From NCBI RefSeq assembly GCF_030013205.1, contig NZ_CP122648.1: a DNA stretch of 64,000 nucleotides; one strand, 5' to 3'. How positions within the stretch are numbered: the stretch's first letter is position 1; each line of letters begins with the position of its first letter. This document shows positions 18,101-21,100 of this stretch, one piece after another. A program made the position numbers. Source of the stretch: Escherichia coli. GTDB taxonomy: Bacteria > Pseudomonadota > Gammaproteobacteria > Enterobacterales > Enterobacteriaceae.

Positions 18101-21100
18101 ATGGCTGCGGCAGATCTTGTGCTGTACGCATAATGCCTTTGTCATAGGCCAGCGCGACATAGCGTTCCACCATTAGCGGCCAGGCTTCTTTATCGAGCAC
18201 GCGTACATCGTTAAGTAAACCGTAGCGCATCTCGCCGCGCCAGCCGGTGCGATGAGGAATACCCGCGAAGAAAGGCACTAATGCGGATTTGAAGGAGTTG
18301 GGTAAGACGTAGGCGCGGTCGTAGCGCTTTTCACGCAGACTATGACCCAGTTTGCGGCGTTCGCCGATTTCCAGCGCTCCGTGACCGAGAGGCATAGGAA
18401 TAGCTTCGTTAACTTCCGGCATCCGCGATAATAATGGACGGCACCATGCCGGTGCCATCACGTCGATTATCGCCTGGGGATAGCGCGCCTGGAGCGTGCG
18501 ATAGAGACTTTGCGACATCATCATGTCGCCAACCCAAGACGGGCCGACCACCAGTATTTTCATGCAGAGCTCTTATGCGTCGCGATTCAGCCAGGTCATG
18601 TATTCCGTTACGCCTTCGGCAACGGTTTTGAACGGTTTGTCGTAACCCGCCGCGCGCAGATTTGTCAGATCTGCCTGAGTGAACGCCTGATAGCGGCCTT
18701 TCAGTTTATCCGGGAACGGAATGTATTCGATTTGGCCTTTCTTGTGATAAGCAAGCGTAGCATCTGCTACAGCCTGGAAGGATTCCGCACGACCAGTACC
18801 GAGGTTGAAGATGCCGGAAACGCCATTTTCCAGGAACCACAGGTTTACATCTGCCACGTCGCCTACGTAAACGAAGTCGCGTTTGAAGTTCTCGCTACCT
18901 TCGAACAGCTTCGGCGATTCACCGTTATTAAGCTGGGTGTTGAGATGGAAAGCGACGCTCGCCATACTGCCTTTATGGCCTTCACGCGGTCCATAAACGT
19001 TGAAATAGCGGAAGCCAACAATCTGCGAGTTCGCTTCTGGCAGGATTTGACGAACATATTCATCAAACAGGAATTTTGAGTAACCGTAGACATTCAACGG
19101 TTTTTCGTACTCGCGGGATTCAATAAAGTCGGAGGTGCGTCCGCCGTAGGTGGCTGCGGAAGAGGCATACAGGAACGGGATTTCGCGCTCCAGACAGTAG
19201 TGCAGCAGCTCTTTGGAGTATTGATAGTTGTTATCCATCATATACTTGCCATCCCACTCGGTGGTGGAAGAGCATGCGCCTTCGTGGAAAATCGCTTCGA
19301 CATCACCGAACTCTTCGCCAGCCATAATCTGGATCAGGAAGTCTTCCTTATCCATATAGTCCGCGATATCCAGATCCACCAGGTTCACAAACTTGGTGCC
19401 GTCTTTCAGGTTATCCACCACCAGAATATCGGTGATGCCTTTGTCATTCAGGGCCTTAACGATGTTGCTGCCGATAAAGCCCGCGCCGCCGGTAACGATG
19501 ATCATAACTGTAACCTTCGAATTATGGAGTCAGAGACAATCTCAGACACGAATGCTTCTATCATATCACTACACGGCGTTGGCTTCAGCCATTCGCCAAA
19601 AGTGAGATTGATGGACGTTATTTATCCTGAATTTTGCAGAAGTGTTAACGCGTCATCTCGTCGCGACCTATAAGTTTGGGTAATATGTGCTGGAATTTGC
19701 CCTGTCTGGAGAATCGCAATGCGTGGAGAATTTTATCAGCAGTTAACCAACGATCTGGAAACCGCACGGGCGGAAGGGTTGTTTAAAGAAGAGCGCATTA
19801 TTACGTCTGCGCAGCAAGCAGATATCACTGTGGCTGATGGAAGCCACGTCATTAACTTTTGTGCCAATAACTATCTCGGACTGGCGAATCATCCGGATCT
19901 GATTGCGGCGGCAAAGGCGGGAATGGATTCTCACGGTTTCGGCATGGCTTCGGTGCGTTTTATTTGCGGCACTCAGGACAGCCATAAAGAGCTTGAACAA
20001 AAACTGGCGGCCTTCCTGGGGATGGAAGATGCGATTCTCTACTCTTCCTGCTTTGATGCTAACGGTGGCCTGTTCGAAACGCTGTTAGGCGCGGAAGACG
20101 CCATTATCTCCGACGCACTGAACCACGCGTCTATTATTGATGGTGTGCGTCTGTGCAAAGCTAAACGCTATCGTTATGCCAACAACGATATGCAGGAGCT
20201 GGAAGCACGTCTGAAAGAAGCGCGTGAAGCCGGTGCGCGTCATGTGCTGATTGCCACCGATGGTGTGTTCTCGATGGACGGCGTGATTGCCAACCTGAAA
20301 GGTGTTTGCGATCTCGCAGATAAATATGATGCCCTGGTGATGGTAGATGACTCACACGCGGTAGGTTTTGTCGGTGAAAACGGTCGTGGTTCCCATGAAT
20401 ACTGCGATGTGATGGGCCGGGTCGATATTATCACCGGCACGCTCGGTAAAGCGCTGGGCGGGGCTTCTGGTGGTTATACCGCGGCGCGCAAAGAAGTGGT
20501 TGAGTGGCTGCGCCAGCGTTCTCGTCCGTACCTGTTCTCCAACTCGCTGGCACCGGCCATTGTTGCCGCTTCCATCAAAGTGCTGGAGATGGTTGAAGCG
20601 GGTAGCGAGCTGCGTGACCGTCTGTGGGCGAACGCGCGTCAGTTCCGTGAGCAAATGTCGGCGGCGGGCTTTACCCTGGCGGGAGCCGATCACGCCATTA
20701 TTCCGGTCATGCTTGGCGATGCGGTAGTAGCGCAGAAATTTGCTCGTGAGCTGCAAAAAGAGGGGATTTACGTCACCGGTTTCTTCTATCCGGTCGTTCC
20801 GAAAGGTCAGGCGCGTATTCGTACCCAGATGTCTGCGGCGCATACCCCTGAGCAAATTACGCGTGCAGTAGAAGCATTCACGCGTATTGGTAAACAACTG
20901 GGCGTTATCGCCTGAGGATGTGAGATGAAAGCGTTATCCAAACTGAAAGCGGAAGAGGGCATCTGGATGACCGACGTTCCTGTACCGGAACTCGGGCATA
21001 ACGATCTGCTGATTAAAATCCGTAAAACAGCCATCTGCGGGACTGACGTTCACATCTATAACTGGGATGAGTGGTCGCAAAAAACTATCCCGGTGCCGAT

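Follow-up and report, generated by a model that had tools for sequence, protein, structure and literature searches.

The compact hldD-kbl spacer of an R4-core Escherichia coli genome and the htrL cassette of K-12-like alleles

The genes hldD, which opens the hldD-waaF-waaC operon, and kbl, which opens kbl-tdh, are divergently transcribed at the edge of the waa region of Escherichia coli. We analyzed their junction in a stretch of 64,000 nucleotides from contig NZ_CP122648.1 (assembly GCF_030013205.1), which we refer to as the window, and where 213 bp separate the two start codons. With a probability of about 0.9, these 213 bp are the uninterrupted, ancestral regulatory spacer between hldD and kbl, and it is the K-12-like alleles that carry a cassette insertion, with the single gene htrL (yibB) inside. 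An earlier note on the window, made from the sequence alone, had described hldD and kbl as directly divergent, 213 bp apart and with no htrL between them, and had stated that K-12 carries htrL in this position. It had interpreted the difference as a further change of gene content relative to K-12 at the edge of the waa region, consistent with a different type of lipopolysaccharide (LPS) core.

The junction in the window, in K-12 and in other Enterobacteriaceae

We considered the junction as compact when hldD and kbl are divergent, with approximately 200-230 bp between the start codons and no gene in between, and as K-12-like when an open reading frame (ORF) matching PF09612 or the NCBIfam YibB model lies between the two genes. 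The window shows the first arrangement and not the second. No htrL/YibB homologue was found by tblastn either in the spacer or in the whole 64-kb window (best E = 0.11), and the ORFs of hldD and kbl have the same length as K-12 rfaD (933 bp) and kbl (1197 bp), respectively. The complete genome CFSAN018748 is 100% identical to the 613-bp query, and its annotation by the Prokaryotic Genome Annotation Pipeline (PGAP) also leaves a gap of 213 bp between rfaD and kbl. The ORF list, the Pfam matches, the PGAP-annotated relative and the tblastn search therefore bear out the arrangement described in the earlier note.

In K-12 MG1655, the flanking genes and their orientation are the same as in the window (kbl-htrL-rfaD, b3617-b3619). 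The start-to-start spacer of K-12 is however 1,435 bp long, compared to the 213 bp of the window, and contains htrL, so that the earlier note was right about the additional gene (b3618, 858 bp). The two sequences are identical over the 49 bp upstream of the hldD ATG, to position 19554 and with the leader hairpin included, and share approximately 96% DNA identity over a 370-bp alignment that covers the 5' end of hldD. Homology to K-12 resumes at position 19615, 104 bp before the kbl ATG, and the identity is approximately 99% over these 104 bp and the first ~250 bp of kbl. K-12 has an AT-rich segment of ~1.27 kb between the hldD leader and the kbl promoter block, in place of which the window has only 60 bp. 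This K-12 segment also contains a version of the hldD promoter-proximal flank that has diverged. The K-12 annotation, blastn and MAFFT agree that the difference in gene content at the edge of the waa region is real.

To establish which of the two states is ancestral, we relied on a survey of one genome per species, which was scanned with Kbl and from which the best 80 of more than 576 loci were retained. In 78 of these 80 loci, hldD lies on the same contig as kbl and is divergent from it, and in 67 of the 78 the spacer is 202-229 bp long. Compact spacers occur in E. albertii (213 bp), S. arizonae (202 bp) and Citrobacter (about 215 bp), as well as in Enterobacter, Klebsiella, Raoultella, Kluyvera, Kosakonia, Buttiauxella, Cedecea and others. 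Also in S. Typhimurium, the intergenic region has been given as 'kbl<>rfaD' (PMC10268841). The spacer hosts htrL in only 3 of the 78 loci (Escherichia sp. MOD1-EC7003, Citrobacter sp. R56 and C. freundii M-21); htrL is present in 4 of the 80 loci overall, and in the fourth the contig ends before hldD. Three further loci of the 78, all from the C. youngae group, have a 383-amino-acid GT4 glycosyltransferase gene at the site of htrL, and five have an extra segment of ~125 bp that brings the spacer to 329-340 bp (the sequence was inspected in two of them).

Every block of the window's spacer has its counterpart in the compact spacers of other genera, and this also applies to the 60 bp without an equivalent in K-12: positions 19555-19614 can be aligned with compact spacers such as those of E. 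albertii and Citrobacter. Because these 60 bp are alignable across genera, they represent ancestral DNA and not the scar of a deletion. Similarly, since the window is colinear with compact spacers across genera, the compact form came first and the K-12 form arose by insertion. Other Enterobacteriaceae with a compact spacer share with the window the order of the blocks, the invariant TATGAT and the position of the hairpin, and their spacers have drifted only at the variable centre and the hairpin stem. The spacer of E. albertii has the same length as that of the window and differs at approximately ten positions, mostly within the variable centre. The K-12 arrangement is thus derived, with the insertion located in the variable centre of the spacer.

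Within E. coli, the compact spacer is colinear in 3,465 of the 5,424 complete genomes with a match (64%). In the remaining genomes the match splits at the junctions of the cassette, and htrL is found in about 36%. The earlier note had indicated that other references with the same compact spacer would speak against its interpretation, and such references exist many times over, although K-12 is not one of them. The compact junction is an ordinary, ancestral and already annotated arrangement. It follows that K-12 is unsuitable as the reference state for the hldD-kbl junction, and that for the window itself the arrangement, being common and ancestral, has little significance. It is hardly credible that the compact spacing derives from a collapsed or missing segment of the assembly or from the annotation, given that the identical 613-bp sequence is found in a complete genome and that the spacer is colinear in 3,465 complete genomes and in 67 species loci.

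We also weighed the reverse scenario, in which the lineage of the window was once K-12-like and lost htrL, leaving the compact spacer as a scar. A cassette-bearing ancestor is conceivable for some E. coli, with htrL lying exactly at this junction in genomes with an R3 core and in about half of those with a K-12-type core. A deletion, however, would not rebuild 60 bp that are colinear with E. albertii, Salmonella, Citrobacter, Enterobacter, Klebsiella and others. Furthermore, no remnant of htrL was found in the spacer or in the window, and the composition of the cassette is foreign. Overall, we judge a deletion very improbable and dropped the scar on account of the colinearity with the outgroups. 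Loss of htrL through allelic replacement by a compact allele is possible, and would be recombination rather than deletion.

Some points weigh against the window carrying an uninterrupted ancestral regulatory spacer. A compact allele possibly replaced a cassette-bearing one in the recent ancestry of this R4 lineage. The species survey was done without representatives of E. coli, E. fergusonii and S. enterica subsp. enterica, the RefSeq collection of complete genomes is biased towards clinical and outbreak lineages, and the core-type counts reported below come from samples of 60 rows. In addition, a simple scan for sigma-70 consensus promoters and terminators returned no site at threshold between 19350 and 19850, and our promoter assignments are consequently based on conservation only.

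Predicted promoters and leader hairpin of the spacer

The alignment of 28 compact spacers returned a series of conserved blocks (Table 1). All members of the colinear set, namely the ribosome-binding site, the leader inverted repeat, ATCATA, CTTCAGCC, CGTNATTTAT, CATCTCGT, TAATATGTGC and GGAG, occur in the window with their order unchanged. ATCATA, which reads TATGAT on the hldD strand, is also detectable in every species leader that we compared and in the htrL-bearing alleles. On the same strand, CTGAAG (within CTTCAGCCATTCGCC) lies 17 nucleotides upstream of TATGAT. On the side of kbl, the ATCTCGT portion of CATCTCGT is invariant, with differences at the first position of the block in Cedecea and Dryocola (AATCTCGT). 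TATGAT on the hldD strand and TAATAT on the kbl strand are the only strong hexamers, and the matches to -35 elements are weak.

These features suggest that the spacer is most likely a back-to-back pair of promoters. A proximal hldD promoter on the minus strand, with TATGAT at 19565-19560, would drive hldD-waaF-waaC, and the resulting transcript would start with a 5' stem-loop (19547-19529) followed by the putative ribosome-binding site AAGGTT. On the plus strand, the kbl-tdh promoter would be located in the conserved stretch of 104 bp that precedes the kbl ATG. The window has lost nothing at this junction: the K-12-like alleles have gained the ~1.27-kb htrL cassette in the variable centre of the spacer, with the cassette importing its own version of the hldD-proximal flank. 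The hldD (gmhD/htrM) operon has been reported to be heat-inducible (PMC8745692). A sigma-32 promoter around CTGAAG...TATGAT was considered and dismissed by eye, as there is no C-rich -10 element. A Rob 'marbox' has been reported for Salmonella kbl<>rfaD (PMC10268841), and we rejected it for the spacer of the window because the motif, again by eye, seems to match the hldD coding sequence near 19447-19457.

The hairpin of the presumed hldD leader would start at approximately +7 of the predicted transcript. When the leaders of 64 distinct species were folded one by one, all 64 formed a hairpin of 5 bp or more in the same place, with a median z of -2.5 compared to shuffled sequences. The 5' arm occurs in 30 different versions, and the changes are compensatory (for example CUGAGA/UCUCAG, CCGGG/CCCGG, CCUGG/CCAGG and GUGAGG/CCUUAC). 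The hairpin is unchanged in K-12. RNAalifold on the MAFFT alignment of the leaders returned a helix of only 5 bp, because indels shift the register. A scan of positions 19400-19800 against Rfam 15 identified no family, the lone match being SNORD57 at chance level (13.6 bits versus a gathering threshold of 47, E = 7.7). The simplest role for the stem-loop would be the stabilization of the hldD mRNA. More generally, the stem-loop could act in cis on the heat-inducible hldD-waaFC operon, as a regulatory or mRNA-stabilising element not characterised so far. For LPS specialists, it is a deeply conserved hldD-leader hairpin that is uncurated as an RNA family.

In K-12, the cassette alters the DNA that directly precedes the predicted hldD core promoter. 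Genomic SELEX (systematic evolution of ligands by exponential enrichment) in K-12 reported an RpoD peak flagged HNS, where the htrL promoter TATACA-18-TATAAT was predicted, and also predicted an upstream hldD promoter, TTAATA-17-CATAAA (PMC3946193). The latter maps to positions 8699-8727 of the K-12 locus (L001), within cassette-specific DNA, and the window is without it. In the htrL-hldD spacer of the same locus (8699-8744), the cassette puts AT-rich, HNS-flagged DNA upstream of the hldD core promoter. The regulation of hldD may differ between cassette-bearing and compact alleles, because compact strains have neither this AT-rich DNA, nor the strong promoter-like site of htrL, nor the extra predicted hldD promoter.

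Table 1. Features of the hldD-kbl junction and of the waaL region in the window
Feature	Position	Strand	Evidence or remark
waaX-like GT25 gene	14446-15213	plus	Pfam Glyco_transf_25
R4-type waaL	15253-16506	plus	Pfam Wzy_C
hldD	18573-19505	minus	ORF of 310 amino acids, ATG; Pfam Epimerase, E = 4e-45; rfaD in PGAP annotation of CFSAN018748
hldD<>kbl intergenic spacer, compact allele without htrL	19506-19718		213 bp; direct sequence read
Putative hldD ribosome-binding region AAGGTT	19512-19517	minus	near-invariant AACCTT before the start codon; inferred role
Inverted repeat/hairpin GUCUGAG-AUUGU-CUCUGAC	19529-19547	minus	one U.U mismatch; presumed hldD 5' leader
Segment not K-12-like	19555-19614		60 bp; blastn and MAFFT versus MG1655; K-12 counterpart ~1,267 bp (htrL cassette plus flank)
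Invariant ATCATA (TATGAT on hldD strand)	19560-19565	minus	28/28 spacers; likely -10 of proximal hldD promoter
Block CTTCAGCCATTCGCC	19583-19597	minus	conserved in most genera; possible -35 or regulator site
Variable centre	19598-19614		least conserved alignment columns; approximate insertion site in other lineages
kbl-tdh upstream block ACGTTATTTATCCTGAATTTTGCAG	19615-19639	plus	family consensus CGTGATTTATGCTGCAAAA; putative regulatory role
Near-invariant CATCTCGT	19654-19661	plus	possible -35 region or regulator site
TATAAG, second -10 candidate for kbl	19669-19674	plus	
TAATAT, best -10 candidate for kbl-tdh	19681-19686	plus	within near-invariant TAATATGTGC; TAAGAT in four genera
Putative kbl ribosome-binding site GGAG	19708-19711	plus	invariant core of conserved TCTGGAGA, 7 nucleotides before ATG
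kbl, 2-amino-3-ketobutyrate CoA ligase	19719-20915	plus	ORF of 398 amino acids, ATG; Pfam Aminotran_1_2, E = 2e-78

Core type of the window and distribution of htrL

We typed the core of the window in silico with the primers published in PMC13293308. R4-F and R1R4-R match exactly at 14255-14274 (plus strand) and 14616-14634 (minus strand), which returns the 380-bp R4 product (14255-14634). No R1-F site is present in the window, and no R1 product (842 bp) is obtained. In the R1 locus of NC101, the GT2 gene waaV precedes waaL and the amplicon is 842 bp long, whereas the window has a GT25 gene and an amplicon of 380 bp. The waaL gene of the window shares 35% identity with R1 waaL, and its assignment to the R1 type was ruled out by the annotation of NC101 and PSJ-07 together with the published primers. 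The window instead agrees with the R4 locus (waaQ-G-P-O-T-Y-W-X-L and waaC-F-hldD), with the GT25 gene followed by waaL on the strand of the waaQ operon, and we found no difference between the two. The core type of the window is thus R4 and not R1. This means that R4 references are the proper comparison, and not the R1-core strains that the earlier note had suggested. Elsewhere in the window, positions 22189-23223 host an intact ORF of 344 amino acids that corresponds to waaH (yibD), a gene annotated as a frameshifted pseudogene in O157:H7 ECP19-198 (L003, 11575-12610).

The relation between htrL and core type was measured with composite queries, each made of type-specific waaL genes, the hldD anchor, the htrL segment and the kbl anchor. 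The 60 rows sampled at even steps down the ranking covered all five waaL types. All 16 genomes with an R3 core had htrL and none was compact, while the K-12-type genomes were split into five with htrL and six with the compact spacer. Among R1 genomes, htrL was present in one and the spacer was compact in 18. No R2 or R4 genome in the sample had htrL, with the compact spacer found in five and eight of them, respectively, plus one further compact R4 genome with a truncated waaL. An earlier systematic sample gave the same pattern. The co-occurrence of an R4 core with htrL was detectable in exactly 3 of 5,426 genomes, when we used a query where only this combination reaches 80% coverage. Individual exceptions were confirmed by annotation, such as PSJ-07 (R1 with htrL) and ETEC1738 (one of the three genomes with R4 and htrL).

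Core type and htrL are therefore genuinely associated, but the one does not determine the other. Linkage readily accounts for the association, because htrL lies ~3 kb from the type-specific genes. In this respect, the core-type explanation offered by the earlier note holds only in part: htrL is indeed associated with the core type, but the compact spacer is the majority and ancestral state, and core type is not decisive. The absence of htrL is a correlate of core type and no marker of it. The K-12-type genomes without htrL may correspond to the phylogroup B2 K-12-type strains of PMC13293308.

An unlikely alternative is that the core type dictates the presence of htrL for functional reasons, with the substrate of HtrL found only in K-12 and R3 cores and R4 strains dropping the gene as a result. 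The strength of the association (16/16 R3, 0/5 R2 and 0/8 R4 genomes with htrL, and 3/5,426 for R4 with htrL) and the predicted glycosyltransferase fold of HtrL are in its favor, as is a pangenome of urinary tract infection strains, where htrL co-varies with alleles of waaO, waaY, waaZ and waaJ as accessory genes (PMC8303582). However, K-12-type genomes are found both with and without htrL, an intact htrL is annotated in some R1 and R4 genomes, and physical linkage over ~3 kb together with block transfer accounts for the association without any functional coupling. Full-text searches of the literature on htrL with kbl, core or lipopolysaccharide found no account of a presence/absence polymorphism of htrL; in the literature searched, the relevant mentions of the gene were limited to an accessory-gene listing and to SELEX tables.

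A few matches of these searches stood apart. Over 527 bp, the 3,245-bp record NZ_CP059911.1 (H220) corresponds to the beginning of waaX (GT25), the PKF8 chromosome (H100) is without the kbl side of the junction, and two to three matches of the composite queries lie on records classed as plasmids. NZ_CP059911.1 is probably an assembly fragment and PKF8 probably a rearrangement. IS1 or IS3 transposases were seen in the waaL region of R3-type genomes (H107 and H112).

The htrL cassette and its mobility

The insert of K-12 is ~1.27 kb long and contains the single gene htrL/yibB. Its GC content is 0.33-0.39, compared to about 0.50-0.60 in the flanks, and it bears a promoter-like TATACA-18-TATAAT as well as a terminator-like hairpin just past the htrL stop codon. 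With this low GC content and its own promoter-like and terminator-like sites, the cassette has the appearance of a foreign, self-contained element. HtrL matches Pfam PF09612 (436 bits for the K-12 protein) and the NCBIfam YibB equivalog, and its relatives are named 'WlaTC/HtrL family glycosyltransferase' by NCBI. No relative was found among the PDB sequences. The invariant residues of HtrL include W143-x-D145-F-G and D231-D-D-Q, and fold comparison assigns the protein to the predicted GT-A-fold glycosyltransferases, which suggests an enzymatic activity of this kind. Relative to K-12 and R3 strains, the window is thus without a probable LPS-related glycosyltransferase. In two E. coli genome matches (H173 and H175), an IS1 transposase is annotated together with a split yibB or 'WlaTC/HtrL family' gene, which suggests that htrL is interrupted by IS1 in these genomes.

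Three different insertions occur between the conserved halves of the spacer: the htrL cassette, the GT4 gene of the C. youngae group and the ~125-bp segment. In Citrobacter R56, the junction seems to fall within the preceding CTTCAGCCATT|CACC block. The htrL-bearing alleles of Escherichia and Citrobacter have a common hldD-proximal flank (TGTAATCATACCATCACAT...CCCTTCAGCC), and compact alleles of the same genera have another one (TTCTATCATATCACTACA...GGCTTCAGCC). Since this distinct flank is common to htrL-bearing alleles across genera, it travels with the cassette. Only three parts of the cassettes of K-12 and Citrobacter R56 can be aligned, namely 93 bp at the start, with 93% identity, the coding region, with 76%, and 110 bp at the end, with 86%. 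We also followed the sliding identity along the two exceptional E. coli genomes. PSJ-07 is ~100% K-12-like from the middle of hldD through tdh and R1-like at waaC, while ETEC1738 is K-12-like across the cassette only and window-like on both sides. Such mosaic tracts imply homologous recombination in the conserved flanks of hldD and kbl. The cassette spreads and is replaced between strains, and even between genera, through homologous recombination in its flanks. For LPS specialists, htrL is a mobile single-gene cassette that encodes a predicted GT-A glycosyltransferase and that is present in every R3 genome sampled.

In C. youngae (L010, 4696-5847; also L011 and L012), the 383-amino-acid GT4 protein (PF00534/PF13439) is encoded in the place and orientation of htrL. 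Because this gene sits where htrL does, the hldD-kbl site accepts varied glycosyltransferase cargo. The ~125-bp insert is found in loci L029 (about 5755-5880), L030, L035, L040 and L048. In Lelliottia (L029) and Pseudenterobacter (L048) it is a GC-rich central segment that appears palindromic by eye and is possibly similar to enterobacterial repetitive intergenic consensus (ERIC) elements. The spacer of C. freundii M-21 (L072, 3290-6001) reaches 2,710 bp, with htrL and ~1.25 kb without any ORF of at least 70 amino acids, and the usual block upstream of kbl is mostly replaced.

A broader interpretation, which we put forward tentatively and consider less probable than its contrary, joins two proposals: that the centre of the spacer is a recurrent docking site for glycosyltransferase cassettes that rewires the regulation of the heptose operon, and that the stem-loop of the hldD leader is an uncharacterised cis-regulatory or mRNA-stabilising element. 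If the docking proposal were true, HtrL (GT-A) in Escherichia and Citrobacter and the GT4 protein in the C. youngae group would be interchangeable occupants of the same site. A particular variant of the hldD promoter flank would come along with each cassette, in K-12 together with an HNS-flagged region, and gain or loss of a cassette would rewire the regulation of the heptose operon as well.

Accessory cassettes with a single glycosyltransferase gene are known at the borders of LPS and O-antigen loci, and htrL resembles them in its low GC content, in its own promoter-like and terminator-like sites and in its occurrence at the same site across genera. As in those systems, the mosaic tracts of the htrL cassette end in conserved flanking genes. 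Compared to such loci, the window represents the empty site.

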